The translations under genes were made by a program, and so were the position numbers. The notes beneath the pieces are model-generated. The model was not told the DNA's origin. It did not search any database and saw nothing but the letters and a program-made list of their open reading frames with translations. From an uncultured Gammaproteobacteria bacterium (GTDB lineage Bacteria; Pseudomonadota; Gammaproteobacteria; UBA6002), in assembly GCA_963705725.1 (NCBI GenBank), contig CAVPKM010000010.1, positions 12,264 through 76,263 of the forward strand: a DNA stretch of 64,000 nucleotides, given 5' to 3'. Positions within the stretch are counted from its first letter, which is position 1. Each line of letters begins with the position of its first letter. Below are positions 10,318 to 39,783 of this stretch, in pieces.

Positions 10318-10321
10318 TCCT

Positions 10322-11047: not shown

Positions 11048-11064
11048 CGTTTTTCCCTCTTTTA

Positions 11065-13853: not shown

Positions 13854-13873
13854 GTGGCTTCCATCCTGCCCCC

Positions 13874-14188: not shown

Positions 14189-14224
14189 TTGTAGGGTTCC
14201 TTAAATAACGTGGGGCACTACCTG

Positions 14225-14255
14225 CCTAAGAAGGGTCTCAACTCCCCTTCTTAGG
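14225..14255. other. Intergenic stem-loop between trbB and trbC
   Basis: CCTAAGAAGGG-9nt-CCCTTCTTAGG perfect 11-bp stem. Confidence 0.6.
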
Positions 14256-14272
14256 ATTCTGATTTCATGCTG

Positions 14273-20667: not shown

Positions 20668-20971
20668 AAAGAAAAGTGACACCACAAAATTTTTGGAAAA
20701 TTTAGGCGGAGCATTAACTTTTTCCAATTTAATAGAATCAATTCGTCTTGGTGAAGAAATATCACAAGTCGAATTTGCACAGATATTAGGCATATCCAGA
20801 CAAAATTTATGCGATATTGAGCATGGTCGCCGAACAGTGAGCCCTAAAAAAGCAGTGGATTTTGCGAAGAAACTAGGCTATCCCCCTCAGCAATTTGTTA
20901 GATTATGTTTGCAGGATTTAGTAACGCGAGATGGGCTGAAATTAAAAATTGACGTTCAAGATGCCGCTTAA
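20657..20971 (+). CDS. higA: HigA-type XRE antitoxin
   Basis: HTH SQVEFAQILGISRQNLCDIEHGRR; overlaps the toxin stop. Confidence 0.85.
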   Translation: MTIKKKSDTTKFLENLGGALTFSNLIESIRLGEEISQVEFAQILGISRQNLCDIEHGRRTVSPKKAVDFAKKLGYPPQQFVRLCLQDLVTRDGLKLKIDVQDAA

Positions 20972-23463: not shown

Positions 23464-24096
23464 ATGAATGACAAGCAACAAGCAATTGAGCGTGGCAAGC
23501 GACTACGGCTTATTAGAAAAATTGCTGGATTAACAAGAAATCAATTGGCAGAGTCAATTGGTATGACACCTACTACCTTAAGCACGTGGGAAAATGCTAA
23601 TTTCAATGGCATCACTCTAGGTGGCGGAGAAAAAGTTATCACGACTTTATTGAGTAAGGGCGTCCACTGTTCCCTCGCTTGGCTAATGGAAGGGATTGGT
23701 CAACCTCCTGAAATTCTTTCCGAGCTATTAGGAAATGATTCTATTTCGTTGAAGCCTGAACCAGAAAATAACATCCACAAAGAAATGATCTTTTTTTTAC
23801 GTTTAAATCCTAAAAGTATCACTTTTCAAATTCGAGACCCTCGCCTCATGCCTTTTTTAAAGCCAGGCGACTGGGTGGGCGGCCTTTGGCAAGCACCCAA
23901 TGCAACCATCATTAATGAATTTTCTATCATTAAAGTCAATCAAGAGGAAGAAGTTTGCTTAATTCAGGCGGGATCTCAACCTGATCATTATACGTTGTGT
24001 TATACCACACAACTTAATTTAGAAACGCTTCCTCTTCAGCGCTTTGATGTCAAGCTGAAGGAAGTGGCAGTGATTACTCGTCTTTGGCGGAATTAA
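23464..24096 (+). CDS. CI-like XRE repressor with degenerate S24-like C-terminal domain
   Basis: N-terminal HTH (RLRLIR...TRNQLAESIG...LSTWEN), WLMEGIG linker, MPFLKPGDWV; divergent from the O-P operon. Confidence 0.8.
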   Translation: MNDKQQAIERGKRLRLIRKIAGLTRNQLAESIGMTPTTLSTWENANFNGITLGGGEKVITTLLSKGVHCSLAWLMEGIGQPPEILSELLGNDSISLKPEPENNIHKEMIFFLRLNPKSITFQIRDPRLMPFLKPGDWVGGLWQAPNATIINEFSIIKVNQEEEVCLIQAGSQPDHYTLCYTTQLNLETLPLQRFDVKLKEVAVITRLWRN

Positions 24097-25259
24097 CGTC
24101 TGTTACCAACGTCCTTAGCATCCTCGAGACATTTTTTTAATTGCTTAAATGTAATGGGTTTAGCCAGCACCCCGATTAGTCCATTATCTAAAAAATATTC
24201 AATATCTGCCGGTGTTGTTGTTGATGTAATGCCCACAAAAAGACTATTGTGATTTATCGTTTGCATAGCCTGTCGCTTTACTGCTAGCCCATCCATATCT
24301 GGTAATGAGATGTCAAGTAAGATTAAGTCATACCGATGCTCACTTAACGCCACTACCGCTTCTTGCCCTGTTTTGACAAGTTCTGCCTTTGAGTTTAAAC
24401 GTTGCAATAACGATTGGAGAATTTCAGCTGTTTCGGAATCATCTTCAACCAATAAAATTTCGTTGAGCTCAGTTATATATCGAAAAGATTCTAGTGTTTT
24501 TTTCTCACCCTTATTTTTATTTAATCTTTTCTCAATTCTTCTTTCTTCAGAATAGAAAGGAATGATAATCTCAACGCATGTGCCCTTTTCTAATTCACTT
24601 TGAATGGTTAAGTTCCCGCCTAATAATCTAATTAATGTTTGGGCATACGTCAGCTTAAGTGCTGGGTTTAAATAGCTTAATTCTTGTTCTTTAAAGAACG
24701 CAGGCAAGTGATTGATATCATTGACGACTCGTTCTGGAATTCCGATTCCTGTATCAGCAATAGTAAAATGAAGTCGATTTGAATCAGCGAAAACCTTAGC
24801 CTTAAGAAGAATTTGTCCTTGCCGAGTATATGTTAAAGCATTTTGGTAAAGTATTTTAAGGACTTGATATAAATGATAACTATCAATAAAGAATGTCTTC
24901 TCTAACAAGACAGGATCAACATTTATAATGTTTTCAACGGATTTTTTCTGTTTTTCTTGCTGAATTTTATCAATCAGCGCCATAATATCAGTCGCGATAA
25001 TCTCTAACTGAAGGCCACTCGTAACCAGATCGTAATATTGACCTAACCATTTCGAACGCAAGTGATAAGTAGCTAGCTGCTTTTTAATTTTTTTCAGTTC
25101 TTTAATAATCTGGTTATTCTTAGGAGATTTGTCGAGCGCTTCCAACAGACATTCAATACGGGCACTTGCATTGGAAATTGGGCCACCCATTTCGTGCATA
25201 ATTAAGGAAAGAAATTTTTTTTCATTGATATGATAAAAATCAACAGTGTTTTTCGACAT
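24093..25259 (-). CDS. Sensor-less hybrid histidine kinase (HisKA-HATPase-REC) with degenerate G2 box
   Basis: MHEMGGPI H-box, QNALTYT N-box, DTGIGI G1; NPALKL in place of GxGLGL; C-terminal VEDD/LDISLPD/KP. Confidence 0.85.
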   Translation of the reverse strand: MSKNTVDFYHINEKKFLSLIMHEMGGPISNASARIECLLEALDKSPKNNQIIKELKKIKKQLATYHLRSKWLGQYYDLVTSGLQLEIIATDIMALIDKIQQEKQKKSVENIINVDPVLLEKTFFIDSYHLYQVLKILYQNALTYTRQGQILLKAKVFADSNRLHFTIADTGIGIPERVVNDINHLPAFFKEQELSYLNPALKLTYAQTLIRLLGGNLTIQSELEKGTCVEIIIPFYSEERRIEKRLNKNKGEKKTLESFRYITELNEILLVEDDSETAEILQSLLQRLNSKAELVKTGQEAVVALSEHRYDLILLDISLPDMDGLAVKRQAMQTINHNSLFVGITSTTTPADIEYFLDNGLIGVLAKPITFKQLKKCLEDAKDVGNRR

Positions 25260-25520
25260 AATTGCTCTTGTCTAAATTAGTAATAGACTAATAGTCATAC
25301 TGATTTTGAATTTATAACATACACTTTTCGAGTGTTAACAGTTATTTTTTTGTCCATACAAAGAAATCTTGTCAATTTAGTATATAACGTAAATTTCTCT
25401 TCTTAATGTCTGTTCTAAATCACCAGTTGAAAGGAGAAGCTCATTATCCACTTGCGGTATACCCTTTAGTCTTTCTCCGTAAGGCGCTGTCCGCCTGTTA
25501 TATTTTTGGCGCCAAGCCAA

Positions 25521-25536
25521 TGTTCTACGTAGAACA
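25521..25536. promoter_or_regulatory. parS-like 16-bp palindrome
   Basis: TGTTCTACGTAGAACA vs parS consensus TGTTTCACGTGAAACA; DnaA-box-like TTATCCACT at 25444..25452. Confidence 0.55.
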
Positions 25537-25857
25537 GCGCCCACTGACCGAAAGATCCCTTATTGATATCTAATTGAGTCTTATATGATCCCTAATATGA
25601 ATACTTAAGACTATCAATCATTATTGTAAAGAGAGCAGTCCAATCGCATCATGCTCCCATCTATATCAAACTTTCGAAACCAATTAAGTTTTCTCATCTT
25701 TCAAATTCATTTGTGAATAAAAATAATACATGGGGGCTTTTAATGCATCAGTACAGACTTATTTATTTTTGTTTACATTCAGAAGAGATAAATTCAGCTA
25801 TTATATTACGCATATATTGGATTTTTTATAGCTGATTAACAAAGAAAACCAGTCAGA

Positions 25858-26590
25858 TGATATCTATTTGATTTCCAATAGATACCCTTTTGATATCTAT
25901 TTAACATCTATACTAACTCAAAGCTACACGTAAAAACTGACTTCTCTATCCTATCCGAAAGATGTTGATTGATGATTCCCAATATGACCTAAATTGAAAG
26001 GATTAAAGTTGAGTATCAATTGGAGATCTATCGAGCATCATTTAGATATCAAAAGATAATCATAAAGGAGCTTTTTAAAACTAATGGGGATCAATCAAGG
26101 CTCATATGGAACTCAATTAGGCATCATATAAGGATCGTATAGATATCATTTTAAATTTGAATCTCTCTATCTAATTCGAATAGCTACTTTGTGTGTTTTT
26201 AGATTTATGCAAATCGTTATTGATATCAATTGAACATCATTTAAGAATCAACTAGACATCTATCAGGCATCATTTGGCGATCTAAAGAGAATCATTAAGG
26301 CACCTATTGGGAATCTTATAGAGATCAACCAAGATTCATCTAGAAATCAATTGAATATCAAACAGGGTATCATAAAGGCATCAAGCATTAGGCATCAAAT
26401 AAGGATCATATAGAAATCAAATTAAACTTGAATCTCTCTATTTATCCAGGTAACTCATGGGGTATTTTAAATTAATACGAATTGATATAGAAATCAATTA
26501 AGCATCTTTCAATAATCATTCAGACATCTATAGGGAATCATTCGAGGGATCATTTTTCAATTAGTAGTAGTAGTATTAAATTACTACTAC
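25858..26590 (+). repeat. Helically phased degenerate 11-bp repeat array (candidate iterons/centromere) ending in a GTAGTAGTA/TACTACTAC palindrome
   Basis: ATC core recurs every 11 bp in four blocks, including 13 consecutive units at 26225..26359; 57-bp imperfect duplication at 26117 and 26388. Confidence 0.85.
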
Positions 26591-26690
26591 TTTATATACA
26601 CGATTTATTTTAAAAATATGTTTGACAGGTCTTTATCTGTAAGTTTAAAATTTTATTCAAATTTAACCGCAATCTTAAACAGGAGTCGGG

Positions 26691-27680
26691 ATGGAGCCTA
26701 AAATGTTAGTTTCAGAAGCCGCTGAAGCAGTTGGCCTTACAGTGCAGGCCCTGCACAATCAAATTAAGAAGAAAAATCTGATACATGCAAAAAGCAAGAA
26801 TCGAGTATATTTTTCACATTCAACCGCTAAATCATTATTAGAATTAAAATTCAAAAATCAAATTATCTGCTTCCAGATAGTCAAGGGAGGCACTGGGAAG
26901 ACTTCATTGTGTCTGTCTGTCGGTGTTAGAGCCAGTTTATATGGAGCTAAAACGCTATTAATCGATCTTGATTCACAAGGTAATCTTACTACTGCGTGCC
27001 GAATAAAATCTCAAGACAAGCCAGTTATGGTCGATATTATTAGTGACGATCTAAGTATTGAAGAAGGAATAATTAATGTCAGTGAAGGTTTAGACATTTT
27101 GCCAAGTCGTATAGAAAATGTGGTATTGGATAATACCCTTATGTTAAGAAGATTTCCTGTAGATAGAGTTTATCAAGAACTATTATCCCCACTGCGTCAG
27201 AAATATGATCTGATAGTTGTAGACTGTCCTCCTGCCCTTGGGTATTCGGTTGCTGCTACAGCATTAGCATCAGATAAAGTAATTTCTCCAGTAACACCAT
27301 CTGAATTTAGCTTAGAGGGCCTAGAAATTACCTCGAAAGAATTACGAGATTTACAACAAAAATATAAAACCAAAATAAAACACAGCCCAATTTTAAATGA
27401 ATTTGATGGAAGAACAACCTTATCGCACGATACCTTACGATTTTTAGCTAGTCATAAAGAATTTAGCAAACATATGATGAGAACGGTAGTTAGAAAAAAT
27501 CAAATTTTCGAAAATGTTTTGACAGAGCGCGTTTCTATTTTTGATTCTCTATTACATAGCTCAGCTAAAGAAGATGTCGACCTCTTAACAAGAGAGATTC
27601 TCAGCATTGGCGTTTTTTCAGAACCCATTGAAGAAAGTTTGGATAAAAATAAAGTAAAAAAAGAAGACTTGGTTGTATAA
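26691..27680 (+). CDS. parA: ParA partition ATPase with N-terminal HTH (type Ia-like)
   Basis: KGGTGKT, IDLDSQGNLT and VDCPPALG motifs; TTGACA-18-TAAAAT promoter at 26622..26651. Confidence 0.93.
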   Translation: MEPKMLVSEAAEAVGLTVQALHNQIKKKNLIHAKSKNRVYFSHSTAKSLLELKFKNQIICFQIVKGGTGKTSLCLSVGVRASLYGAKTLLIDLDSQGNLTTACRIKSQDKPVMVDIISDDLSIEEGIINVSEGLDILPSRIENVVLDNTLMLRRFPVDRVYQELLSPLRQKYDLIVVDCPPALGYSVAATALASDKVISPVTPSEFSLEGLEITSKELRDLQQKYKTKIKHSPILNEFDGRTTLSHDTLRFLASHKEFSKHMMRTVVRKNQIFENVLTERVSIFDSLLHSSAKEDVDLLTREILSIGVFSEPIEESLDKNKVKKEDLVV

Positions 27681-27700: not shown

Positions 27701-28780
27701 ATGCCTAGCGTTGAAGAAATACTAAATGGAAAGAAGAAAAAATTTAAAAAAACAAATTATCGTCCTTGGAATTTTTTAGAAGACGCAGATGTAAAAAAAA
27801 TTGATTCTGACAGTAAGGAAATTGAATATCATCAAGAAGCACCTCGACGAATAGAAGAAAGAAAAGAATTTAAAAAAAAATTACAGTCCAATGACACATT
27901 TCAAGAAGATCAGCAACATTATATCTCTACAGATACTTACCTTGATCAAATTGGTAGGTTAACTGGATATCAAAAAAAGATATTTGCCTATGTACTGGAA
28001 CGTTGTATGAGTAGAGGAATGTTAACAACAGGAATGGTGACTAATGAAAGTTTATCTCAGATAACATCAACTTCTCGTCAAATGGTTAAAACGTCTATAA
28101 GTAGATTAATAGAGAAGGGCTTAATATATCGAGAGAAGGGTAAATCAGGTAGGGGAGGATTTTTTATTCTAAGAATTAGTGAGGGGATACGAGCTGCTGG
28201 GTTGGAACATAAACGAAAAAATGATTTTTTTATTGAGTACGATAAAAAAATAGATGAAGCGCTACCCGAAATAAAAAATTTAGTTACACCAGAAGGTTGG
28301 ATTGATGAGGATATTGATTGCTTAAAGGATATTGGCTTTACATTTGATCATGTACAACAGCTATTAAACATAGGGATATCCACGGAAAAATTAAAAGAAT
28401 CAATTTTATTTTTTGCATATGACCTAAAATATAACAACAAGACAGCTGAAATTAAAAAATCACCTTTAAACTATTTTATTGGTATTTTACGGAAATCTCG
28501 AATGTATATACCCCCGGATAATTATGAGTCTCCTGAGGAGAAAACACTTCGCCTGTACATAGAAAAAAAAGAACAGGCTTTTAAGATTAAAGAAGCAAGA
28601 CTGAATAAGGCATTTAATTTGGCTTTTGAGGATTGGTACTCAACTTTGAATTCAAATGAAAAGGACATAATGCTTCCTAGCTCTTTAAAAAATCTTAAAG
28701 AAGGGAAAATTAAAATAGAACATTTTAAAAGCGTCTTTAGAGAAAAACACTGGCCAAAAATTTTAGATGAACTTTCTTAG
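27701..28780 (+). CDS. Putative plasmid replication initiator / winged-helix DNA-binding protein
   Basis: Central wHTH (VKTSISRLIEKGLIYREKGKSGRGGF); C-terminal KSPLNYFIGILRK; co-transcribed with parA. Confidence 0.6.
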   Translation: MPSVEEILNGKKKKFKKTNYRPWNFLEDADVKKIDSDSKEIEYHQEAPRRIEERKEFKKKLQSNDTFQEDQQHYISTDTYLDQIGRLTGYQKKIFAYVLERCMSRGMLTTGMVTNESLSQITSTSRQMVKTSISRLIEKGLIYREKGKSGRGGFFILRISEGIRAAGLEHKRKNDFFIEYDKKIDEALPEIKNLVTPEGWIDEDIDCLKDIGFTFDHVQQLLNIGISTEKLKESILFFAYDLKYNNKTAEIKKSPLNYFIGILRKSRMYIPPDNYESPEEKTLRLYIEKKEQAFKIKEARLNKAFNLAFEDWYSTLNSNEKDIMLPSSLKNLKEGKIKIEHFKSVFREKHWPKILDELS

Positions 28781-29034
28781 TAGCAAAACTTTGGAATGAT
28801 AAAAGGGTATAAAAATTTAATAACCTATTGCTATTTTTATTTTACCTTCAAAGTTAATTTTAGATCACTGTTTAGTCAAATATCACAAGTAATTTGAATT
28901 TTTGCACATATAACGAAAAAATAAAAATTTGTAAAAAATACTATAGTTTAAGTTTGTTTTAGCAATCTAGCCATCTAAGCATTTTTAATGTATAGTAATT
29001 AAAATTAACTAAATTACACTAAGGATATACAAAA

Positions 29035-29754
29035 ATGTTTCAATCGAAAGAACCTTCAAATATTAAAGCTTCTCGCAAGGTGCTGACTGCCCGTTTTGCA
29101 GGGTTGGCGGGTAAAGCTCCTAATTTTAAAAAAACAAGTTGTATTCTTCTTGTTAGTGTTGGAAAAGAAAATTTTGAAGGATCTGCCCTTGAAGCTCAGT
29201 TAAAATTAATTAATGCAGAATTTAATGATTGCATAATATTAGTTGCTGATACACTTCAGCGCTATAATTTTTTAGCTTCTTATACTGAAATCTTGTCTGA
29301 AGAAAAAGCGAGAGAGGTAGGTTCCGAATGGATTAATAGACATAATCATTTATTTAAACAGCATTTAACAAATATTAATTATGAGATTTGCAGATGGGAT
29401 GAATGGATAGAAAAAGAGGGCTTTTTGGGAAAAAAAATAATGATTGAACAACAGCTAAATTCAGACAGTATATATATTGAAGCGATGAACAAGTCTATTA
29501 ACGAGTTTGTTACTAGGTGTCAAAAAAGAATTACACCTGATCAATTTTTCAATGAATTAGAAATAACTGAAAACTGTAAAAATTATCTCATAGAGGAATG
29601 TGCTGTTTTGTTAATGCTGGGCGAAGAAAATTATCAATATATTGTCTATCCGGGAAAAGAGACACCTATTTTAGCTGCAACTCTTGATTTCATACATCAA
29701 CAGAAATCAGATTGTTTAAAGGTTAGAGAAAAAGAAAGAAAGTCAACCAACTAA
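29035..29754 (+). CDS. tRNA-dependent cyclodipeptide synthase (CDPS), XYP subfamily
   Basis: LLVSVG (catalytic Ser), VADTLQRYN, RWDEW, NYLIEEC (catalytic Tyr/Glu) and VYP motifs. Confidence 0.88.
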   Translation: MFQSKEPSNIKASRKVLTARFAGLAGKAPNFKKTSCILLVSVGKENFEGSALEAQLKLINAEFNDCIILVADTLQRYNFLASYTEILSEEKAREVGSEWINRHNHLFKQHLTNINYEICRWDEWIEKEGFLGKKIMIEQQLNSDSIYIEAMNKSINEFVTRCQKRITPDQFFNELEITENCKNYLIEECAVLLMLGEENYQYIVYPGKETPILAATLDFIHQQKSDCLKVREKERKSTN

Positions 29755-29959
29755 TTTTTTTATAAATAGACCTTCTTATCAAGAGAAGAAAATTTCTATC
29801 GATTTAAATACGTTAGCCTTATCCTTTACTGTAAACTTAAAAACTATTTTGCAAGCTATCCCAACTTCTGAAGAGCGAATGGCGCTGCTTGAAAAAATTG
29901 AATTAGATATCTTAAATGAATTAAGAGAATTATCTCATGAAAAGCAGGAACTTGCATAA
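29720..29959 (+). pseudogene. Probable frameshifted C-terminal continuation of the CDPS
   Basis: 79 sense codons open in the +1 frame (RLEKKKESQPTNFF...EKQELA*), with no good start, filling the gap to the kinase. Confidence 0.5.
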
Positions 29960-29994
29960 AAGCTGTTGCTATTTTATCAAATGGAATTTGAATA

Positions 29995-30286
29995 ATGCAT
30001 AAAAAATACGATCTCAAAAAAAAAGTAATAACTTTAGAAAAAATTATTTCATTGTTGCCTGGACATATTTATTGGAAGGATATGAATGGTGTTTATCTTG
30101 GTTGTAACTATTATCAAGCAAAATCTTTAGGATTCGAATCTATTGCTGAAATTATAGGGAAAACAGACTACGAGTTACCTTGGAGAGAACAAGCAGATGA
30201 ATTAGTACGAATAGATAAGAAAATAATAGCTACAAAGCAAGCTATTAAGACAGAGGAATTCGTAGTCCTACCAGATGGAAAAAAGG
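29995..30286 (+). pseudogene. PAS sensor histidine kinase, 5' part (PAS) interrupted by IS66
   Basis: LPGHIYWKD...YLGCN...IIGKTDYELPW PAS motif. Confidence 0.9.
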
Positions 30287-30363
30287 GTATCCGCTAATTT
30301 AACCACCCACTTATGCTATAACGTAAGTTCTTGCATACTCCTGTTTTTTTAAAGGAGTAGCGC

Positions 30364-30717
30364 ATGACAGCAACCCATAATTCGCCTTCTCAAAAAACTC
30401 TGGCATTAAATATGGAAAAATGGCGATCAATAATTACAGATTGGGAATTAAGCAAAGAAAGTCAAAAAAAATATTGTGAGCGGTTAGGGATAAGTTTAAA
30501 TACTTTTACGCATGCCCGTAGCAAGTTAATTCGAGATAAAAAAATAAAACCCGCGTTTATTCCTCTCTCTTTGAATCCAATCGAGATTCAAAATTCTTCG
30601 AGCATTAATACCGTGATTATTGAAAACCCGAAGGGATTTAAACTCCATGTTTCATCAGAATTATCGTTAGATCGTTTAGTGAAAATTTTTAAATTATGTG
30701 GGTGGTTAAATGCTTAA
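30364..30717 (+). CDS. tnpA: IS66 TnpA
   Basis: W...I..W..S..SQKKYC..LGIS HTH, AFIPL; first IS66 ORF. Confidence 0.9.
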   Translation: MTATHNSPSQKTLALNMEKWRSIITDWELSKESQKKYCERLGISLNTFTHARSKLIRDKKIKPAFIPLSLNPIEIQNSSSINTVIIENPKGFKLHVSSELSLDRLVKIFKLCGWLNA

Positions 30718-31066
30718 GTTACGAGACGAAGTAAAAATTTATGTGAGCATGGAGCCTATAGATGCGAGAAAAAGCATTGATAGTTTATGTATCCTTATTG
30801 TCGAAAATTTTAAGGATAATCCACAATGTGGGAGCCTCTTTATTTTTTTTAATAAATCACGAGATAAAGTAAAAATTATTTGGTGGGATGCAAATGGTTT
30901 TATTCTACATTACAAGCGCCTTGAAAAAGGACGCTTTGTTCTGCCAAAATTAAGTGGAATTGATAAACTAGAAATTTCACAAACTCAGCTTCACGGTTTA
31001 TTGGCAGGTTTAGATTTCTCACTCATGCGCCATTTTCCTGAAATAAATTATTATCAATATGCATAA
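30710..31066 (+). CDS. tnpB: IS66 TnpB
   Basis: Identical protein to 938..1294. Confidence 0.95.
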   Translation: MLKLRDEVKIYVSMEPIDARKSIDSLCILIVENFKDNPQCGSLFIFFNKSRDKVKIIWWDANGFILHYKRLEKGRFVLPKLSGIDKLEISQTQLHGLLAGLDFSLMRHFPEINYYQYA

Positions 31067-31106
31067 AACAGTGAGGCATAGTGGAAAATTATAGTATCAT
31101 GTCTCC

Positions 31107-32654
31107 ATGGATAGATCTCATGAATTACAAGCGATATCAAAAGAAGAATTAATTAAAATAATTCAACAAAAAAACACCCTCCTTTTTGAACAAGCAAAAC
31201 AAATTCAATTTTTAGAAGAGCAAATTCTTGCCTATCGACTTCGCCAATTTGCCAATAAATCCGAGAAAATTAATCCTAATCAAATTTCTCTTTTTGATGA
31301 GGCGGTATTGCCTAAATCAGAAGAGAAAATCTTATCACAAGAAGAAGTCATCACGGTTGCTTCTTATACTAAAAGTAAGCAGGTAGGGAGAAGAGCACTA
31401 CCTGCAGAATTATTTCGTATACCTCGAATCTATGATTTATCTGAAGATGAAAAAATTTGTCAATGCGGTTGTGCATTAACTCACATTAAAGATGAAAAAA
31501 GCGAGCAACTCGAAATTATTCCAGCAAAAATTTATGTCATCGAGCATATCAGAAAAAAATATGCCTGCAAAAAATGTCAAGAAACCATTAAGCTAGCAAA
31601 ACAACCTGCTGCACCTATTCCAAGGAGTATTGCAGCAAGTGGATTATTAAGTCACGTATTGGTTTCAAAATTTCAAGATCACTTGCCGCTATTTCGCCAA
31701 GAAAAAATATTAAAACGCATTGGTGTGGATATTCCTCGAGCCACATTATGTTTATGGGTGATCAAGTGTGCTGAACTTTTGCTGCCGATTTTAAAACTAA
31801 TGCATGATCGAATATTAACTTATGATATTGCTTATGTTGATGAAACCACATTGCAAGTTATTAAAGAACAGAATAAAAGTATAAAAAGTAAAAAATACAT
31901 GTGGCTTTATTCAGGCGGACCCAAAGCACAATTTGTTTATTACTACCAATATCATCCTTCACGCTCACACGAAGTCGCCGATGCTTTTTTTGCGGATTTT
32001 TCAGGCTACTTACACTGTGATGGCTTCATTGGGTATGACACATTAGCGGGAAAAAGAAAAACGATAAAACTGGTTGGCTGTTGGTATCACGCGAGACGAA
32101 AATTTATTGAAGTTACAAAGCTCATGCCAAATAAAGAAGGGGTGGCTTGGCATATTGTTAAACTCATTGCAAAACTCAGCGTGATTGAAGAAGAAATAAA
32201 AATCTTATCTGCTGCAGAAAAACAGGCTATTCGACAAGCGAAATCGAAAGTGATTATCAATGAAATACAGGATTATCTCATCAAACATCAATCTATTATT
32301 CCACCAAAAAGTTTATTAGGAGAAGCGGTAGGTTATACACTCAATCAATGGCCAAAATTATTAAGATTTCTTGATGATGGACGTCTCGATATTAGTAATA
32401 ATCTTTCTGAGCGAGGCATTAAACCTTTTGTAATCGGCAGAAAAGGTTGGCTCTTTGCTGATAGTGTGGCTGGCGCTCATGCAGCAGCAACAATTTTTAG
32501 CATCATTGAAACTTGCAAGTATCATCAGGTTGAGCCTTATGATTATTTGCGATATGTGCTTGATGTCATACCTCGATGCAACACGATTGAAGATTACGAA
32601 AAACTCCTTCCTTATAATATTGATCGAGCACTGCTGGTTAGCCAAGTGCGCTGA
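31107..32654 (+). CDS. tnpC: IS66 transposase TnpC
   Basis: Identical protein to 1335..2882. Confidence 0.96.
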   Translation: MDRSHELQAISKEELIKIIQQKNTLLFEQAKQIQFLEEQILAYRLRQFANKSEKINPNQISLFDEAVLPKSEEKILSQEEVITVASYTKSKQVGRRALPAELFRIPRIYDLSEDEKICQCGCALTHIKDEKSEQLEIIPAKIYVIEHIRKKYACKKCQETIKLAKQPAAPIPRSIAASGLLSHVLVSKFQDHLPLFRQEKILKRIGVDIPRATLCLWVIKCAELLLPILKLMHDRILTYDIAYVDETTLQVIKEQNKSIKSKKYMWLYSGGPKAQFVYYYQYHPSRSHEVADAFFADFSGYLHCDGFIGYDTLAGKRKTIKLVGCWYHARRKFIEVTKLMPNKEGVAWHIVKLIAKLSVIEEEIKILSAAEKQAIRQAKSKVIINEIQDYLIKHQSIIPPKSLLGEAVGYTLNQWPKLLRFLDDGRLDISNNLSERGIKPFVIGRKGWLFADSVAGAHAAATIFSIIETCKYHQVEPYDYLRYVLDVIPRCNTIEDYEKLLPYNIDRALLVSQVR

Positions 32655-32684
32655 GGGGCTGATTAATTAGCGGATACAAAAAGG

Positions 32685-33201
32685 CAACTTTCTTATCGAT
32701 TAAACATCCTTTATGTGACGATGATGATAATGTTATTGGTATTTTAGGAGTTTCTTTTGATATTACTGATCGAAAGCAAATGGAGAGTGAATTAATACGA
32801 ACAAAAGAACAGGCTGAAATAGCAAATAAAGCAAAAACCGAATTTTTAGAAAACATGCGCCATGATATCCGTACGCCATTGACTGGCATCACGGGATTTG
32901 CATCAATCATCGCTGATGAATCCAAAGACCTAAAAATTAAAGAGTATGCAGAAAACTTGGTCTCTTCTAGCTATGCACTCAATGATTTATTAAATGAAAT
33001 TTTAGAAGTAATTAAAATTGGATCCAATGAAATTCCAATGCTAAAGAAAAAATTTAATTTCAATGATAAATTGTCTAATATCATCAAGCTGTTAAACGCT
33101 AAAGCTTTACAAAAGCAGCTTCAGCTGACATTGGACTATGATGACAGGATTCCTACTTATCTTCTAGGAGACTCCACTCGAATACATCGCATTGTTTTAG
33201 A
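32685..33201 (+). pseudogene. PAS sensor histidine kinase, 3' part (PAC-HisKA), truncated by IS256 at the N-box
   Basis: Removing IS66 and one TSD restores PDGKKATFLSIKHPL...GVSFDITDRK; H-box FLENMRHDIRTPL; ends at GDSTRIHRIVLE. Confidence 0.9.
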
Positions 33202-34716
33202 GAGGCTGTAAAATTTTTTGTGTAACTGGATTTAGTCAGTATAAACTAACTGAAACAAGGAGTACTGACTATGGCGACAAAACTCACTTCATTTGATCCG
33301 CAAATGATAGATAATTTGATTAAGGACTGCAAAACCCAAGAAGATATGTTTGGCGAAGGAGGTCTTCTGAAAAACTTGACGAAGGCACTTTTGGAAAGGG
33401 CCATGCAAGGAGAGATGAGCAGCCACTTGGGCTACGAGAAAAATGAGGCTAAAGGTAAGAATAGCGGCAATTCTCGAAATGGATATTCAGAAAAAACTTT
33501 AAAGGGCGAAAATGGCGAATTTACTATCCAGGTACCCAGAGATCGAAATGCAGATTTTTCTCCCCAGATTGTTGCTAAGAACCAAACGCGTTTTGAAGGG
33601 TTTGATGACAAAATCATCAGCCTTTATGCGAGAGGGATGACGACACGTGATATACAGGGGCAATTGCAAGAGCTCTATGGGGTAGAAGTCTCTCCTACTT
33701 TCATTTCCAATGTGACCAACGAAGTCATTGAGGAAGTGAAAACTTGGCAGTGTCGTCCCTGATAAACTTTATCCCATTGTTTACTTTGATGCCTTAATGA
33801 TCAAAGTTAAAGAAGATAAGCGAGTGATTAACAAAGCCTTTTATCTTGCTTTGGGTGTAGATCTTGAAGGGCAAAAAGAATTACTGGGAATTTGGATTAG
33901 CCAAACGGAAAGTTCAAAATTTTGGCTCAATGTGTTATCTGAATTGCAGCATCGTGGTGTGGGAGATATTTTGATTGCTTGCGTTGATGGCCTTACGGGC
34001 TTTCCTGATGCCATTTCAACGGTATTTCCCAAGACCCAGGTTCAACTTTGCATTGTTCATATGATTCGAAATTCACTACGCTATGTTCCTTGGAAAAGCC
34101 GTAAGCAAGTGGCGGCGGATTTAAAAACGATTTATGGCGCAAAGACACTCGATGAAGCCGAATTATGTCTCGCTACTTTTTCCGAGAAGTGGGACGAGCA
34201 TTACCCTTCTATCAGTAAAAGCTGGCTGACTCACTGGGAAAATGTCACGCCTTTTTTTGGCTACTCTTCTGAAATTCGTCGCGCGATTTATACTACGAAT
34301 GCAGTTGAATCCGTGAATATGAGCCTTCGGAAGGTTATTAAAAGTAAGCGCGTTTTTCCTTCGGATGATGCGGCTTTGAAGCAGCTATATTTAGCGCTTA
34401 AAAATATTTCAAAAAAATGGACAATGCCAATACGAAATTGGGGTGATGCCATGAATCGTTTTATGATCCTGTTCGAAGACAGGCTAAAAGGAGCGATTTA
34501 GTTTAAGAACTGATTTAAAATTTTGTGCCTTCGATCGCCTGTGGATATATGCACAAACTGACTCGTTGCACTCGTCAGTATTGCGCACATACCCACAGGC
34601 ACAATAATTTTATTTGTTTATTTAAAAAATTTTTGTTATTTTAATTTCGCTATCTGGAATTCGGTAGCAAAAAATCTGCTGACTCAACCTGCTTACACAA
34701 AATTATTTACGCTACC
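33202..34716 (+). mobile_element. IS256-family element, copy 1 (1515 bp)
   Basis: Imperfect IRs GAGGCTGTAAAATTTTTTGTGTAA / TTACACAAAATTATTTACGCTACC; inverted copy at 39774..41288; no TSD. Confidence 0.93.
33271..34501 (+). pseudogene. IS256 transposase split by a +1 frameshift at CCC-TGA
   Basis: RNGY, VPRDR, GMTTRDI in ORF1; the +1 frame continues DKLYPIVYFDA...DGLTG...QLCIVH...YTTNAVES. Confidence 0.9.
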
Positions 34717-34767
34717 TATATTTTAGGTCATACACAAGTTTTTCTCAGGAAAAAATTGAATTAAGGG

Positions 34768-35304
34768 ATGATCATGCCAAAAAGATTTGTTATGACAGGT
34801 GCGATGGGAAGTGGTAAATCGACTATTTTAAAGTTGCTGCAATCTACCGGCTTGGCTGTGATTGAAGAACCAGCGAGACAAATATTAGCTGAGCAACGCA
34901 GCATCGGTGATGATGGTGTACCAGAAAAAAATCCTAAATATTTTTTACAACTCATGTTATCCCGTGCAATCTACCAATTTAAGCAAACTCAAGAGCTAGA
35001 TGGGAACGTGATCTACGATAGGGGAGTCCCAGATATGTTAGCGTATTTTCATCTATTCAGTATGAGTTATCCTCCGGCGCAACAAGCCTCAAAATTATTT
35101 AGATATGAACCCAAGGTTTTTTTCTTCCCAGCATGGAAAGAGATATATACAACTGATGACGAAAGAAAAATGTCATTTGAATTAGCACAAGATTTTGGAA
35201 TGAAAGTCCAAGAAATTTATAGTGACTATGGTTATACGCTAATCAATGTACCCTGCGTATCGCCAGAAGAGCGTGTTCAATTTATTATCGAGAGATTGAG
35301 TTAA
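34768..35304 (+). CDS. AAA_28/NadR-like P-loop ATPase
   Basis: MTGAMGSGKST, EPAR, YDRGVPD and IYTTDDER motifs. Confidence 0.85.
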   Translation: MIMPKRFVMTGAMGSGKSTILKLLQSTGLAVIEEPARQILAEQRSIGDDGVPEKNPKYFLQLMLSRAIYQFKQTQELDGNVIYDRGVPDMLAYFHLFSMSYPPAQQASKLFRYEPKVFFFPAWKEIYTTDDERKMSFELAQDFGMKVQEIYSDYGYTLINVPCVSPEERVQFIIERLS

Positions 35305-35308
35305 TAAA

Positions 35309-35452
35309 ATGATTGAAAAGGTCAAAATGAAAAAATTGGTTGTTCTATCTGGTGCGTCTTCCGGCGGAAAAGCAACGCTATTATCCGAATTGTTTTTTGG
35401 GAAGCTAAAGCCAATGATTAAATTTTTCGTTACTGCATTATTAGGTGGGTAA
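35309..35452 (+). pseudogene. N-terminal stub of a second P-loop ATPase
   Basis: MKKLVVLSGASSGGKATLLSEL followed by unrelated sequence and a stop. Confidence 0.5.
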
Positions 35453-35454
35453 CA

Positions 35455-36636
35455 GTGTCATCATTGAATCAACATGATATTTCTAAAAAGACAGCACTTA
35501 AGTTTGTTATTTTATTAAGCGTGGTCAGTCTATTTGCCGATATGACTTATGAAGGTGCGCGCAGTATTACTGGACCTTATTTAGCAATATTAGGTGCCAA
35601 TGCTGCAATTGTAGGTTTTGTTGCCGGCTTCGGTGAATTTGCCGGATATGCGTTGCGCATTGTGTCTGGATATCTCGCCGATCGCACAGGTAAATATTGG
35701 GCTATCACGATAATCGGTTATGTCTGTAATTTACTTGCAGTTCCATTGTTAGCATTAGCTGGATATTGGTGGATAGCGACGGTTTTAATTGTCCTTGAGC
35801 GAACAGGCAGAGCTATTCGTGTGCCACCGCGTGATGCCATGCTCTCTCATGCTGGGCAAAAAATGGGGATGGGATGGGTCTTTGGATTACATGAGGCAAT
35901 TGACCAAATAGGCGCGATGATGGGCCCATTAATTGTCGCATTTGTACTTTATTCCAAAGGAGGATACAGAGAAAGCTTCGCGGTACTTTTGGTACCAGCA
36001 TTAATTGCGCTAACAATATTAATATTTGCACGATGGCTCTATCCAAAACCACAAGCTTTGGAAGTACAGCATGATAATTTTGAAGCTAAAGGAATGAATT
36101 TTTCATTTTGGCTTTATCTAACGGGCGCATCGCTAATTGCAGCAGGGTATGCAGATTTTCCTTTGATTGCGTTTCATTTTCAAAAAACAGCAATATTATC
36201 GCCCATCTGGATCCCTGTATCTTATGCAATCGCAATGGGTCTGAATTCATTATCTGCGCCTCTTTTCGGACATTTTTATGATAGAAAAGGTTTTGTAATT
36301 TTAATTATAGTAACGATTGCTTCATGTCTTTTTGCTCCTCTGGTATTTTTAGGGAATGCTACAACGGCATTTTTTGGCGTTGCTTTATGGAGTATCGGCG
36401 TAGGCGCGCATGAGTCATTAATGCGTGCGATTGTCGCAAATATGGTACCAATGAACAGACGCGGTTCTGCCTATGGAATATTTAATACTGGATATGGCAT
36501 TTGCTGGTTTTTAGGTAGCTTTTTGATGGGTATCATCTATGATGTGTCTATTCCTGCATTAGTTGTTTTTTCAATTCTCATTCAATTATTAGCCGTACCA
36601 ATATTATGGATAGTAATGAAAAAAATTAAAAAATAG
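35455..36636 (+). CDS. MFS transporter
   Basis: About 12 TM helices; GYLADRTG and GHFYDRKG motif A. Confidence 0.92.
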   Translation: MSSLNQHDISKKTALKFVILLSVVSLFADMTYEGARSITGPYLAILGANAAIVGFVAGFGEFAGYALRIVSGYLADRTGKYWAITIIGYVCNLLAVPLLALAGYWWIATVLIVLERTGRAIRVPPRDAMLSHAGQKMGMGWVFGLHEAIDQIGAMMGPLIVAFVLYSKGGYRESFAVLLVPALIALTILIFARWLYPKPQALEVQHDNFEAKGMNFSFWLYLTGASLIAAGYADFPLIAFHFQKTAILSPIWIPVSYAIAMGLNSLSAPLFGHFYDRKGFVILIIVTIASCLFAPLVFLGNATTAFFGVALWSIGVGAHESLMRAIVANMVPMNRRGSAYGIFNTGYGICWFLGSFLMGIIYDVSIPALVVFSILIQLLAVPILWIVMKKIKK

Positions 36637-36966
36637 TTGTATTAGCTAAAACGCACCGACGATCTCTAACTTATAACTGTAGACTCCTTTTGCTGCACCT
36701 GTTGGCCCTATTGCCGAACTCTTCTTTTGCAGGTTGAACTTGACTTTGGCGAATGAAAATGAGTAGAGGTTATATTTGTTAAATTGTAGTAGGAAATACT
36801 ACAACGTAGTACTATTTCTGATAACCTCATGACATGGAGAAAAGCTAATCTAGTTTTATAACCCCAGCTCGTTGAAGACGTATACAGAGGAAAGAACTCT
36901 AAAAACGGAAAATCAGCAAGTTGAAGTTCTCTTAAATTAGGCGGTTATTTAAGTTAAAACTCATAT

Positions 36967-36987
36967 AACCCCCTTTAAAAGGGGGTT
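36967..36987. promoter_or_regulatory. Putative AbiEi operator inverted repeat
   Basis: AACCCCCTTT-A-AAAGGGGGTT ending about 20 bp before the abiEi start. Confidence 0.55.
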
Positions 36988-37008
36988 TAGATAGAGTATA
37001 ATTACAGC

Positions 37009-37812
37009 ATGGATATAAACGCTAAAGATTACATTGATCAGCTGACAGCGCGGGGTGAGATTTCCTTCACTACGCAAACAATGCGTGATGCAATGGGTGT
37101 AACAATAAAAGCCGTCGAAAGAGCGATTTATCGCCTAAGAAAAAAAGGTGAAATTGCAAACATTGCGAAAGGTTATTACCTTATTCTGACACCTGAATTT
37201 CGTAAATTAGGTTGCTTGCCGCCAGATTATTTTATCGATGATCTCATGCAACATTGGCAACAAAACTATTATGTTGGTTTACTAAGCGCTGCTCTTTATT
37301 TTGGTGCTGCGCATCAACAACCCCAAGTATTTCAAGTAGTGACAGACCAGTATAGACGCGCCATCCGGTGTGGACATGTCAAAATTGAGTTTTTCACCAA
37401 AAAAAACATCTCAGATACACCTACTAGGCAACTAAAAACCCATACAGGAATGATGAATGTTTCTACCCCGGAAGCAACTATGATGGATTTATGTGTGCTT
37501 CTTAGACGTAGTGGAGGATTAAGTCATGTGGCAACGGTTCTCGATGAATTGGCAGAATCGGCTAATCCTGAAGATTTAAAAAAATTGCTGGGAAAAAACA
37601 ATGAGCTGACCTGGATGCAAAGGTTAGGCTATTTATTGGAACAATTAGGCCGGGATGAATTAGCAGAAGTTTTATATCAGCATATAAAAGATCAAGAAAC
37701 AAATATTGTTCCGTTAGTGCCTTATTATTCAATGCGAGGTGCTGAGCGTAATACAAAATGGCGAATTGCCATTAATGCAGTGATGGAGAGTGATGTACAT
37801 GATACCGATTAA
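37009..37812 (+). CDS. abiEi: Type IV TA antitoxin AbiEi family
   Basis: N-terminal wHTH (KGYY), YYVGLLSAALYFGAAHQQPQVFQV, STPEATMMDL and QRLGYLL motifs. Confidence 0.88.
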   Translation: MDINAKDYIDQLTARGEISFTTQTMRDAMGVTIKAVERAIYRLRKKGEIANIAKGYYLILTPEFRKLGCLPPDYFIDDLMQHWQQNYYVGLLSAALYFGAAHQQPQVFQVVTDQYRRAIRCGHVKIEFFTKKNISDTPTRQLKTHTGMMNVSTPEATMMDLCVLLRRSGGLSHVATVLDELAESANPEDLKKLLGKNNELTWMQRLGYLLEQLGRDELAEVLYQHIKDQETNIVPLVPYYSMRGAERNTKWRIAINAVMESDVHDTD

Positions 37813-38626
37813 TATGATTAAAGAATGGCGGCAGCAAGCCCCATGGGTTTACCAATCACAAGTTGAGCAAGATCTTATACTCAGTCGAGCGTTGATTGCG
37901 CTTTATCAAGATGAACTTATACAAAAGACGCTTAGCTTTAGAGGTGGTACTGCGCTTAATAAACTTTTTATTAAACCACCAGCAAGATACAGCGAAGATC
38001 TCGATTTTGTTCAAGTGAACGATGAACCTATCGGTCATATTTTAACAGCTGTGAGAAAAGCATTAGATCCTTGGTTAGGAGCAGCTCGATGGAAACAGGG
38101 GCCTCGTTCAGTTAAATTAATATATCGTTTTCAATCGGAAGATAATCCTCCTGTTCCGCTACGTTTAAAGATTGAAATTAATACCACCGAATTTTTTACT
38201 CTCTATGGTTATCAAAATCATGATTATGGGATTGAAAGCCGATGGTTTACAGGACGAGCCAATATAAAAACTTACCAATTAGAAGAATTGATGGGAACAA
38301 AGTTGCGTGCGCTTTATCAACGATTGAAAGGACGCGATTTATTTGATTTATGGCTAGGCATTACTCAATTAAATATGGATTGCGAAAAGGTGATTGATGT
38401 ATTTGGCCAGTATAATAAGTCTAACAATATTATTATTAGCCGTGCTGAATTTGAAAAAAATTTAATACCAAAAATGAAAGTTCATGAATTCATTGGTGAT
38501 GTTAAAGCACTATTATCAGGCGATATAAATTGGGAACCGGAACACGCTTATTTATCTGTTATGGATAAATTGATTGCAAGATTGCCTGGTCAGCCATGGA
38601 AAGACTTAAATGCTTCGAGTAAATAA
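37790..38626 (+). CDS. abiEii: Type IV TA toxin, AbiEii nucleotidyltransferase
   Basis: EQDL, FRGGTALNK, RYSEDLDF, KIEIN and KLRALYQR.KGRDLFDL motifs. Confidence 0.92.
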   Translation: MMYMIPINMIKEWRQQAPWVYQSQVEQDLILSRALIALYQDELIQKTLSFRGGTALNKLFIKPPARYSEDLDFVQVNDEPIGHILTAVRKALDPWLGAARWKQGPRSVKLIYRFQSEDNPPVPLRLKIEINTTEFFTLYGYQNHDYGIESRWFTGRANIKTYQLEELMGTKLRALYQRLKGRDLFDLWLGITQLNMDCEKVIDVFGQYNKSNNIIISRAEFEKNLIPKMKVHEFIGDVKALLSGDINWEPEHAYLSVMDKLIARLPGQPWKDLNASSK

Positions 38627-38661
38627 GAATTTTTTATTTCGCGAGTAGAGAGAGGTGATTA

Positions 38662-39783
38662 ATGTTAAGTGAAACTTCACAGCCAAAACCAAAAACAAGG
38701 AAGGAAAGTGAAATTTGGCATGCATGTAAATCGCTATGGGAAGATGGCGTTAATGTGGAGCAAATGACAGGGCTTGCTATTGGTGATCGTTTAGAAAAAC
38801 TAGGCTTTAAACGCGGCAGTAATACTGACATACACCGATTTAAAAAATCATGGATGGTGGAGCATAAAATCGATCAATTGATTAATAATAGTGATTATGA
38901 ATTGAATAGCAATTTATCGAGTCCAATAGCATTAGCTGTTAATAAGGTAGAAAAAGAACTCACTCGACAATTACAAGAAAAACAATCCAAGATTGAATCC
39001 GATGCAAAACAAAAAATTGTAACAGCACAAGAGCAATGTGAGCGATTGAATATAGAATTAAATGATGCACGTAAAACCATTGTAAATTTAGAAGAGCAGA
39101 TATCACAACTCAAATTACAAATAAATAAACTTGAAATGAGTGTTAATCATGAACGCGAACAGAAATTAATTTATGAAACACGTTTTAATGATTTAGAAAA
39201 TTATTATCAGCAATTAATAAAAGATACTGAAAATCGGGTTAAGGATCTAAATGAAGTCAATCAAAAAAATGTTGAAATTTTGCAGGCGAATATAAAAAAT
39301 ATAATGCATCAGCATCAAGACGATGTTAATAATTATAAAAAAATATTTGAAAATGAAAAGCTGCAATATATTTCAAACATTGATTATCTGAAGCAAATAA
39401 TTGATGGTTTGGAAAAAATAAATTATGAAAAAGAGCAGTCTAACACGAAATATCTAATGGAAAATGAAAAAATTCTAGAGGAAAATAAATTTTCGCAAGA
39501 AGATAATTTACAGATAAAAATACAATTATCAAATGTAGAAAAAAATTCGCAAGCCATACAGGAATCAATAGCTCACAAAAATGGAGAGATTAAGCAACTT
39601 ACTGATCTAATTAATCAAAAAGAAAGTCACATTTATGAATTGCATCAAAAAATAATTCACGCTGACTATCAGAATACGGTGTTACAAACACAACTGGATA
39701 AAGCCAAGGAAGAGATTAATCAAATTAAAAGCCAGCATGATATGCAGATAAGAAAACTTAACGCTAATGCTGAGGTAGCGTAA
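38662..39783 (+). CDS. KfrA-like DNA-binding coiled-coil protein, 3' end cut by IS256
   Basis: N-terminal RGSNTDIHRFKKSW helix motif, long coiled coil; stop codon lies inside the IS end. Confidence 0.6.
   Translation: MLSETSQPKPKTRKESEIWHACKSLWEDGVNVEQMTGLAIGDRLEKLGFKRGSNTDIHRFKKSWMVEHKIDQLINNSDYELNSNLSSPIALAVNKVEKELTRQLQEKQSKIESDAKQKIVTAQEQCERLNIELNDARKTIVNLEEQISQLKLQINKLEMSVNHEREQKLIYETRFNDLENYYQQLIKDTENRVKDLNEVNQKNVEILQANIKNIMHQHQDDVNNYKKIFENEKLQYISNIDYLKQIIDGLEKINYEKEQSNTKYLMENEKILEENKFSQEDNLQIKIQLSNVEKNSQAIQESIAHKNGEIKQLTDLINQKESHIYELHQKIIHADYQNTVLQTQLDKAKEEINQIKSQHDMQIRKLNANAEVA

Follow-up and report, generated by a model that had tools for sequence, protein, structure and literature searches.

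A cyclodipeptide synthase beside a broken VqmA-like histidine kinase in a gammaproteobacterial genome: a decayed copy of a candidate signalling module

Whether cyclic dipeptides act as true bacterial signals has long been disputed, and one cause of the dispute, to our knowledge, is that no dedicated synthase–receptor pair has been defined. For alpha-hydroxyketones, the CqsA/CqsS and LqsA/LqsS systems provide a synthase gene that adjoins the gene of a sensor kinase with phosphorelay output; CqsA and LqsA are pyridoxal-phosphate-dependent acyl transferases, and CqsS and LqsS are membrane receptors that bind their ligands in transmembrane helices. The Vibrio cholerae autoinducer 3,5-dimethylpyrazin-2-ol (DPO) is made from threonine and alanine by way of threonine dehydrogenase, which is not encoded beside the gene of its receptor, VqmA. 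DPO stacks on F67 and F99 of VqmA and accepts a hydrogen bond from K101 at its ring carbonyl; binding is lost in the K101R and F67A variants, and the ligand needs a hydroxyl or carbonyl at its 2' position (accessible text of bioRxiv 10.1101/2019.12.19.881847). The receptors listed for cyclic dipeptides in the accessible text of a 2026 review are still orphan LuxR-type proteins only. Here we describe a 64,000-nt stretch of DNA from an uncultured gammaproteobacterium (the window; contig CAVPKM010000010.1), in which the gene of an XYP-type cyclodipeptide synthase (CDPS) is followed on the same strand by the remains of a gene for a PAS histidine kinase. We favour, with moderate confidence, the reading that a conserved two- or three-gene signalling module, whose sensor reads the product of the synthase, survives in the window as a decayed copy.

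The locus shares with CqsA/CqsS and LqsA/LqsS the adjacency of synthase and sensor kinase and, in its intact relatives, a phosphorelay output, but its sensor is a cytoplasmic PAS protein and its synthase a CDPS, often within one and the same polypeptide. With the AlbC/cyclodipeptide oxidase, YvmC/CypX and Rv2275/CYP121 clusters it shares the enzyme family and the chemistry of the first step (accessible text of PMC12945691 and PMC5767969); whereas the partners in such classical clusters are oxidases, P450s or methyltransferases, the constant partner here is a sensor. The best structural relatives of the synthase are Fdum-CDPS (PDB 5ocd), Cglo-CDPS (5mlq) and Rgry-CDPS (5mlp), all from intracellular or host-associated bacteria. 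The accessible text of PMC12945691 places these enzymes in the XYP subfamily and gives their substrates as two Gly-tRNAs for Fdum-CDPS and Phe/Leu-tRNAs for the other two; we saw no published link of any of the three to a sensor. Skinnider et al. (2018, BMC Genomics 19:45, PMC5767969) devoted two sentences to the matter, in which PAS is named as one of the most frequent non-biosynthetic domains in the vicinity of CDPSs and quorum sensing is offered as a guess; as far as the accessible text goes, the remark does not extend to kinases, fusions, a relationship to VqmA, a PQ-loop partner or the lineages concerned. This remark was the sole mention of a CDPS–kinase or CDPS–VqmA link that we found in the full-text literature, with subscription journals and supplements outside the search, and the word 'kinase' is absent from Gondry et al. 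(2018). The identity of the partner as a kinase, its relationship to VqmA, the frequent fusions and the PQ-loop partner appear to be new.

The CDPS reading frame of the window matched three synthase structures in the PDB, namely 5ocd (E 4.9e-32, residues 30–221), 5mlq (E 7.9e-22, residues 34–237) and 5mlp (E 6.7e-5). The protein carries Ser41, Tyr184, Glu188 and Tyr205-Pro206, and its catalytic domain is intact; we take Ser41, Tyr184, Glu188 and Tyr205 to be the equivalents of AlbC S37, Y178, E182 and Y202. Conservation of these residues was checked on 18 and then on 53 distinct CDPS homologs. In the alignment of 53, Ser41 is kept in 51, Tyr184 in 46 (with Phe in 7) and Glu188 in 53, and the subfamily signature is kept as Tyr205 in 53/53 and Pro206 in 49/53. 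An earlier note on this DNA, written from the letters alone, had called the gene an XYP-type CDPS with catalytic Ser, Tyr and Glu, and the structural matches and the conservation bear this out. From its family membership, the enzyme is predicted to make a cyclodipeptide from two aminoacyl-tRNAs. At an E-value threshold of 0.01, Pfam assigned no family to this protein, the CDPS model PF16715 included, and relatives scored 24.6 and 26.6 bits against that model, whose gathering cut-off is 27. PF16715 is blind to the clade to which the window's CDPS belongs, and because the model misses the clade, its synthases carry 'hypothetical protein' labels.

The length of the window's CDPS (239 aa) is ordinary for the family, in which many relatives have 224–262 aa. 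At the end of the gene, a stretch in another frame (29720–29956) matched residues 297–343 of P0002, the closest homolog (52% identical), with an E-value of 2e-4 and 38% identity over 47 aa in BLASTP; the frameshift site is an A-rich run at ~29720–29750. Judged from this alignment, the tail of the synthase is lost by frameshift and the catalytic domain is whole. A promoter and terminator scan of 28600–30400 gave three promoter-like sites, fewer than the shuffle mean of 7.8, and was uninformative.

The sensor gene survives as two fragments that follow the CDPS in the same direction (Table 1), with Pfam matches to PAS_4 at 29995–30297 and to HisKA within 32780–33211 (E 6.2e-15), which agrees with the co-directional PAS-HisKA kinase described in the earlier note. 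That note had also called the copy decayed; the kinase is indeed cut at an IS256-family element and the CDPS tail is out of frame, but an IS66-family element inside the PAS domain had been missed. The IS66 element (2391 bp) carries inverted repeats at its termini, is bordered by a 7-nt direct repeat and is 99.8% identical to another copy at 515–2906 of the window. It falls between strands of the PAS beta-sheet, immediately ahead of the Lys equivalent to VqmA K101, which lies in the second kinase fragment. The ATPase domain is gone, cut by IS256 at ~33203, the missing half is not beyond the inverted twin of this IS256 copy, and tblastn did not place it elsewhere in the genome. With IS66 splitting the PAS domain and IS256 removing the ATPase, the window's kinase is dead. 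Homologous kinases possess the ATPase, usually a REC domain and sometimes an Hpt domain. No hydrophobic stretch was seen in the N-terminal kinase fragment. Each of the two insertion elements has at least seven copies in the genome, those of IS66 being full copies.

Two candidates for the lost ATPase half were rejected: the gene beyond the IS256 twin encodes a Schlafen/AlbA_2-HATPase_c_4 protein that is itself cut, and the hybrid kinase at 24093–25259 has its own phospho-acceptor region. The two IS256 copies, identical and inverted (33203–41287), bracket a 5-kb segment with genes for an AAA_28 ATPase, an MFS transporter, the AbiEi/AbiEii toxin–antitoxin pair and KfrA-like proteins. Because each copy truncates a different gene, one the kinase and the other the Schlafen/AlbA_2-HATPase_c_4 gene at 41338–42392, the arrangement points to an IS-mediated rearrangement, not to a simple composite insertion.

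An intact pair lies on another contig (C7) of the same genome, which measures 1.58 Mb and is 92% complete. There, a CDPS of 239 aa (L044:9971–10690) is followed after a 5-bp gap by a 545-aa PAS_4-HisKA-HATPase_c-REC kinase (L044:10696–12333). Two very large RHS-repeat proteins are encoded directly after this pair (L044:12545–17149 and 17203–19998). On the window's own contig (C10), ~10 kb before the window, C10:283–2718 holds a 99% identical copy of the C7 kinase without a CDPS; the last ~60 nt of the CDPS gene are left, with a 3-nt microhomology at the deletion junction. A solo REC ORF stands just upstream of this receptor-only kinase. In tblastn searches of the genome with four CDPS-linked kinases, kinase and receiver matches were restricted to C10 and C7; three of these places are PAS kinases of the CDPS-linked type, and all three are linked to a CDPS now or were formerly. 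Read from its sequence, the genome holds a single pair that is predicted to work, a receptor-only copy and a synthase whose receptor is dead.

The same pairing recurs widely. Pattern scans of species genomes and of metagenomes gave 7 and 20 loci, respectively; the window's order is represented by five genomes of one genus, two of which carry CDPS genes, with two copies in the window's genome (G000) and five full copies in G004. In the pattern-based set of 32 distinct homologs besides the window's, a PAS/HisKA protein is encoded directly downstream on the same strand in 21/32; two are single CDPS-plus-kinase ORFs, five are uninformative, and four (L009, L020, L023 and L027), each with at least 5 kb of downstream sequence, have no kinase. 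An even sample of the class gave a CDPS match in 29/401 genomes and 28/320 genera. At the 28 best loci of this sample, the kinase is directly downstream in 19, a PAS protein is adjacent on the opposite strand in 3, another kinase or REC protein is adjacent in 2, none is present in 3, and the contig ends in 1. For a merged set, 96 ORFs that matched the CDPS profile were reduced to 53 distinct domains, the window's own included, by dropping those that covered fewer than 150 of the 304 profile positions and merging identical or contained sequences. A PAS protein is encoded directly downstream on the same strand in 37 of these, fused in 2, otherwise adjacent within 1.5 kb in 4 and absent in 7, with 3 uninformative. 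The scoring of homolog neighbourhoods that the earlier note had proposed as a check thus gave a PAS protein fused or adjacent in 43/50 informative distinct homologs.

On these counts, the adjacency of CDPS and kinase is far beyond chance. That it has no function, and arose by chance or by hitch-hiking on shared mobile DNA, is an explanation to which we give almost no credence: IS elements, ParA, MobA and toxin–antitoxin genes do occur near some pairs, and the five pairs of G004 are recent duplicates, but the 43 homologs come from the 28 genera of the even sample as well as from metagenomes, identity among the CDPSs falls to about 25–35%, the intergenic gaps (−66 to 110 bp at 21 loci) are mostly 3–36 bp, and fusions recur. 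Each genome has few such kinases, and the counts contradict an accident of position.

Several loci depart from the simple pair. Two CDPS genes precede one kinase at L076 (G372:C7), two full pairs stand in tandem at L011, and genomes G004 and G372 have five copies each. Solo REC ORFs follow the kinase at L012, L014, L016, L039, L076, L080 and L094. Named carriers include Ca. Endohaliclona and Rickettsiella species. A CDPS match was present in each of the four PLSDB plasmids of Ca. Endohaliclona renieramycinifaciens; on p-ren (MK748464.1, L094, record positions 2693–5333) the order is CDPS, PQ-loop-PAS-PAS-kinase and solo REC, beside the NRPS gene renA. The p-ren CDPS is annotated 'hypothetical protein' and matched the CDPS profile at E 5.9e-51, the kinase is annotated 'putative sensor histidine kinase', and the solo REC is unannotated. 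This renieramycin plasmid has 33 kb, and its host is a reduced sponge symbiont. In Vibrio aquimaris, a weaker CDPS-like gene lacks a PAS-kinase neighbour.

The earlier note had seen no tailoring enzyme between the window's CDPS and its kinase or upstream of the CDPS, and had grouped this CDPS with a sensor instead; none indeed lies nearby, and the grouping is strongly supported. Upstream of the gene are a ParA-type partition ATPase and a 359-aa protein without assignment, and among the 25 commonest families of 139 neighbour ORFs from 25 loci, taken within about 4–5.5 kb of the CDPS with CDPS and kinase set aside, there was no P450, oxidase or methyltransferase. The largest Pfam counts in these 139 ORFs were MFS 3, ParE 3 and PQ-loop 3. 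Clustering of the neighbours gave, beyond kinase, REC and PQ-loop proteins, just lineage-specific synteny among Rickettsiella-type loci.

In some relatives, synthase and sensor are one polypeptide. L016 encodes a CDPS region, PAS_4, HisKA and HATPase_c in one ORF of 596 aa by Pfam, and L010 has a similar fusion that runs up to the contig end. An exhaustive profile search over 1.84 billion cluster representatives returned 2703 CDPS relatives at E <= 1e-3 and 661 at E <= 1e-30. Many of these 2703 are probably labelled hypothetical and passed over by genome-mining tools. We ran Pfam on 20 of the longest among the best 150 representatives. All 14 with at least 583 aa have PAS_4 and HATPase_c after or around the CDPS part, with HisKA in 12 and REC in 8; P0025 carries PAS_4, and the five other scanned representatives gave no family. 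CDPS-PAS-kinase fusions thus account for 15 of the 150 best representatives, and in P0160 and P0024 the CDPS is embedded between PAS domains. P0018 (460 aa) looks like a CDPS–CDPS fusion. A word-based search for longer fused relatives had returned none where the profile search later returned many, which marks a limit of its sensitivity. In the accessible text of a 2010 survey, CDPSs are stand-alone throughout (PMC2922099). In a tree of 28 CDPS sequences, the two fused CDPSs are not sisters, although one of them is a long branch.

The sensor domain of these kinases resembles VqmA. When the PAS domain of the intact paralogue (L044:10696–11145) was compared to the PDB, VqmA entries 6ugl, 6ide and 6kju came first (E 1.1e-9), followed by the PAS domain of BvgS (6.9e-6); a profile of 21 CDPS-linked PAS domains gave 4.7e-13 for VqmA and 7.8e-9 for BvgS. 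For the window's own PAS fragment (97 residues), the three VqmA entries were the sole PDB matches, at E 1e-6 to 1.7e-6. An AlphaFold2 model of the PAS domain (mean pLDDT 93.7) returned VqmA chains as its top six Foldseek matches (TM 0.79–0.81, rmsd 2.1–2.2 Å, 28–30% identity), and the phage VqmA–DPO complex ranked fourteenth; other PAS domains followed with E-values close behind those of VqmA and with rmsd mostly >3 Å. By sequence and fold, VqmA of V. cholerae, with its phage VP882 counterpart (7dwm), is the nearest solved relative of the sensor. The K101 position, whose Lys bonds the ring carbonyl of DPO, aligns with Lys112 of the intact paralogue and is invariant in 21/21 CDPS-linked kinases, and in a HMMER alignment against the 21-kinase alignment N33 corresponds to an invariant Asn and D85 to an invariant Glu. 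The PAS core has 11 invariant columns among 21 sequences that are 33–59% identical. The pyrazin-2-ol ring of DPO is also chemically close to a 2,5-diketopiperazine. In contrast to DPO–VqmA, the output here is a histidine kinase and phosphorelay, not a helix-turn-helix (HTH) domain, and the presumed synthase is a tRNA-dependent CDPS beside or fused to the receptor. The window's protein has a HisKA output with no LuxR-type HTH after its PAS domain. The VqmA architecture itself, PAS_4 with GerE, stands beside a CDPS in two genomes (L083 and L090), and the best solved match there is also VqmA. In our assessment, comparative genomics could not tie this CDPS clade to a VqmA-like sensor more firmly.

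Coupling could also arise if the PAS kinase sensed another cue, such as redox state, oxygen or a host, and controlled expression of the CDPS, whose product would then be a secondary metabolite or a host-directed compound. It is common for biosynthetic genes to adjoin those of their regulators, PAS domains respond to diverse cues, F99 of VqmA is not conserved, and the Endohaliclona plasmid pair adjoins the renieramycin NRPS gene; host manipulation has been proposed for the CDPSs of intracellular bacteria by Aravind and colleagues (accessible text of PMC2922099). Enzymes are rarely fused to their regulators, yet a tenth of the top 150 representatives are such fusions, no gene for a DNA-binding output is conserved beside the pair, and the pairing holds across many families whose neighbours are otherwise unrelated. 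The PAS core is, moreover, unusually conserved and keeps the ligand-contacting Lys of VqmA. We therefore consider regulation of the pathway by an unrelated cue distinctly improbable, and prefer the reading in which the sensor reads the synthase's product because of the fusions, the ligand type of the homologous receptor and the lack of tailoring enzymes.

A third partner is present at part of the loci. It is a protein of 84–118 aa that has three hydrophobic helices and fits the PQ-loop and MtN3/SWEET models (PF04193 and PF03083), and its gene adjoins the CDPS gene or lies between CDPS and kinase, or the protein forms the N-terminus of the kinase, as in L013, L014, L081, L082, L090 and the Endohaliclona kinase. 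Such a partner was found within 4 kb or fused in 17/53 loci. It resembles SemiSWEET and other PQ-loop transporters in its helices and model matches, and differs from SemiSWEETs in its linkage to a CDPS or its fusion, at the N-terminal end, to a PAS kinase; known SemiSWEETs carry sugars. We found nothing in print on a link of PQ-loop proteins to CDPSs or PAS kinases, and no dedicated literature search was made.

Taken together, these parts suggest a scheme in which the XYP-type CDPS would act in the cytoplasm, turning two aminoacyl-tRNAs into a small cyclodipeptide, and the pocket of the N-terminal VqmA-related PAS domain of the downstream soluble, usually hybrid, histidine kinase would bind this molecule, or one closely derived from it, by way of the invariant Lys at the position of VqmA K101. 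Once bound, the ligand would tune autophosphorylation as well as the phosphorelay to REC and Hpt partners, and at the roughly one third of loci that have one, the PQ-loop (SemiSWEET-like) protein would give the molecule a path across the inner membrane. The system would be quorum-sensing-like because the PQ-loop protein would pass the molecule across the inner membrane, and a role as autoinducer gains strength from the VqmA-like PAS domain, the common fusions and the frequent SemiSWEET-like partner.

The molecule may instead stay inside the cell. On this account, which we consider unlikely, the cyclodipeptide would be an internal messenger that reports charged-tRNA pools, and the PAS kinase, as a sensor of nutrients or of charging, would read it in the cell of origin. 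Such a sensor would be complementary to the stringent response, in which uncharged tRNA is read. Small cyclodipeptides are commonly held to pass through membranes, which counts against confinement, although synthase and sensor are both cytoplasmic and often form one polypeptide, and the PAS-CDPS-PAS-kinase form with its embedded synthase favours sensing in cis. The substrates of CDPSs are aminoacyl-tRNAs (accessible text of PMC5816076 and PMC12945691), and the three to five pairs of several genomes could report different amino acids. The window's genome holds a pair and no PQ-loop protein, whereas about a third of the loci have the SemiSWEET-like channel linked or fused. The closest characterised relative of the sensor domain, moreover, is the receptor of an extracellular autoinducer, and receptor-only copies exist, as with orphan quorum-sensing receptors. 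From the PQ-loop partner and these receptor-only copies, we lean towards a signal that leaves the cell.

Several results weigh against a sensor that reads the product of its neighbour, or against release of that product. Adjacency and fusion indicate functional coupling and not its direction. A PAS neighbour is lacking in 7 of the 50 informative CDPS homologs, three of these seven form one clade (SH-aLRT 98 in the tree of 28 sequences), and the loci counted include kin that are not independent and came from searches seeded with the window's family by patterns and profiles. At the position of VqmA F67 the kinases have Phe or Leu, and at that of F99 a nearly invariant Ser. Because this stacking pair is not kept, the pocket is not the DPO pocket; it is, as far as the alignment can tell, related and not identical, as one would expect if the ligand is another six-membered N-heterocycle that bears ring carbonyls. 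PAS domains of the CDPS-linked type outnumber CDPS genes in the five genomes checked, with 2–12 matches each to a profile built partly from those same genomes, and many of the matches sit in ORFs of 216–282 aa. This excess leaves many receptors without a linked synthase and would fit orphan receptors, and it also shows that the PAS family is broader than the pairing. As regards release, which would not be universal, no PQ-loop homolog was found in the window's own genome, and hydrophobic segments occur in just 6/41 kinase ORFs, a number that includes some truncated duplicates from overlapping loci; most of the kinases are soluble and cytoplasmic, and apart from the PQ-loop fusions they show no hydrophobic segments.

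The features of the window are collected in Table 1. The earlier note had placed a hybrid kinase, a solo REC protein and a LuxR HTH within 8 kb of the pair; the first two are present, but both HTH proteins are of the HTH_3/Xre type. Also around the pair are two KfrA-like genes, an AbiE toxin–antitoxin pair and an integrase, and ParA homologs stand near the CDPS in L012 and L015 as well. A search for a PAS or CDPS remnant upstream of the hybrid kinase (25200–26750) gave no match below E 0.2. A 1.4-kb AT-rich gap (25260–26690) without an ORF of at least 60 aa, which may serve in replication or partition, separates the hybrid kinase from parA. Between the secretion genes and the regulators, a 1599-aa ORF (15256–20055, − strand) matched no convincing Pfam family, and a 3004-aa ORF (54981–63995, − strand) runs off the window's end. 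We label the contig plasmid-like or like an integrative and conjugative element; its ends show no overlap, and no near-identical DNA was found among plasmids. That the circuit times conjugative transfer or sets copy number, as the earlier note had suggested, is unsupported beyond co-location: several pairs lie on contigs of 0.5–2 Mb among varied neighbours, and plasmid-type neighbours are occasional only (ParE 3, MobA 2 and ParA-type 2 of the 139 ORFs).

Table 1. Positions of the synthase, the kinase fragments, the insertion elements and neighbouring genes in the window
Feature	Position	Strand	Basis
XYP-type CDPS, 239 aa	29035–29754	+	PDB matches; conserved catalytic residues
Out-of-frame remnant of CDPS C-terminal tail	29720–29959	+	three-frame translation; BLASTP to P0002
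Kinase fragment 1: N-terminus and first two thirds of VqmA-like PAS	29995–30286	+	PAS_4 E 5.4e-5
IS66-family element inside PAS domain	30287–32677	+	Pfam TnpB_IS66, DDE_Tnp_IS66
IS66 orfA	30364–30717	+	
IS66 TnpB	30710–31066	+	
IS66 transposase	31107–32654	+	
Kinase fragment 2: last PAS strands, HisKA with His box, start of ATPase N-box	32678–33202	+	frame-0 translation
IS256-family element ending kinase; Mutator-type transposase in two frames (33271–33762 and 33797–34501)	33203–34717	+	Pfam Transposase_mut
Inverted IS256 twin	39773–41287	−	
ParA-type partition ATPase upstream of CDPS	26691–27680	+	Pfam AAA_31 E 2e-34
Hybrid kinase, HATPase_c and REC	24093–25259	−	Pfam
HTH_3/Xre-type HTH protein	23464–24096		Pfam
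Solo REC protein, 142 aa	22904–23332	−	Pfam
HTH_3/Xre-type HTH protein	20657–20971		Pfam
Type IV secretion genes	3557–15253		

The window's own copy is a modest one, with a dead receptor and a tail-less synthase on an IS-ridden, plasmid-like contig. The clade to which it belongs offers a candidate synthase–receptor pair, with a sensor akin to the only known pyrazinone-type autoinducer receptor and a likely channel beside it, and a proposed function for hundreds of 'hypothetical' CDPS genes that the Pfam model misses. Tentatively, and with somewhat less confidence than we place in the module itself, we suggest that CDPS, SemiSWEET-like channel and VqmA-like receptors, in the form of hybrid kinases or PAS-LuxR proteins, make up a widespread family of cyclodipeptide signalling systems in small-genome, probably host-associated Gammaproteobacteria. 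If this is true, a tRNA-dependent CDPS would for the first time be seen to serve as a dedicated autoinducer synthase whose cognate receptor is genetically linked to it, and the fused forms would be self-reporting synthase-kinases. The VqmA receptor family would then extend from one-component regulators to phosphorelay kinases, and receptor-only and synthase-only copies on mobile DNA, such as those on the window's contig, would be eavesdroppers and orphan producers.

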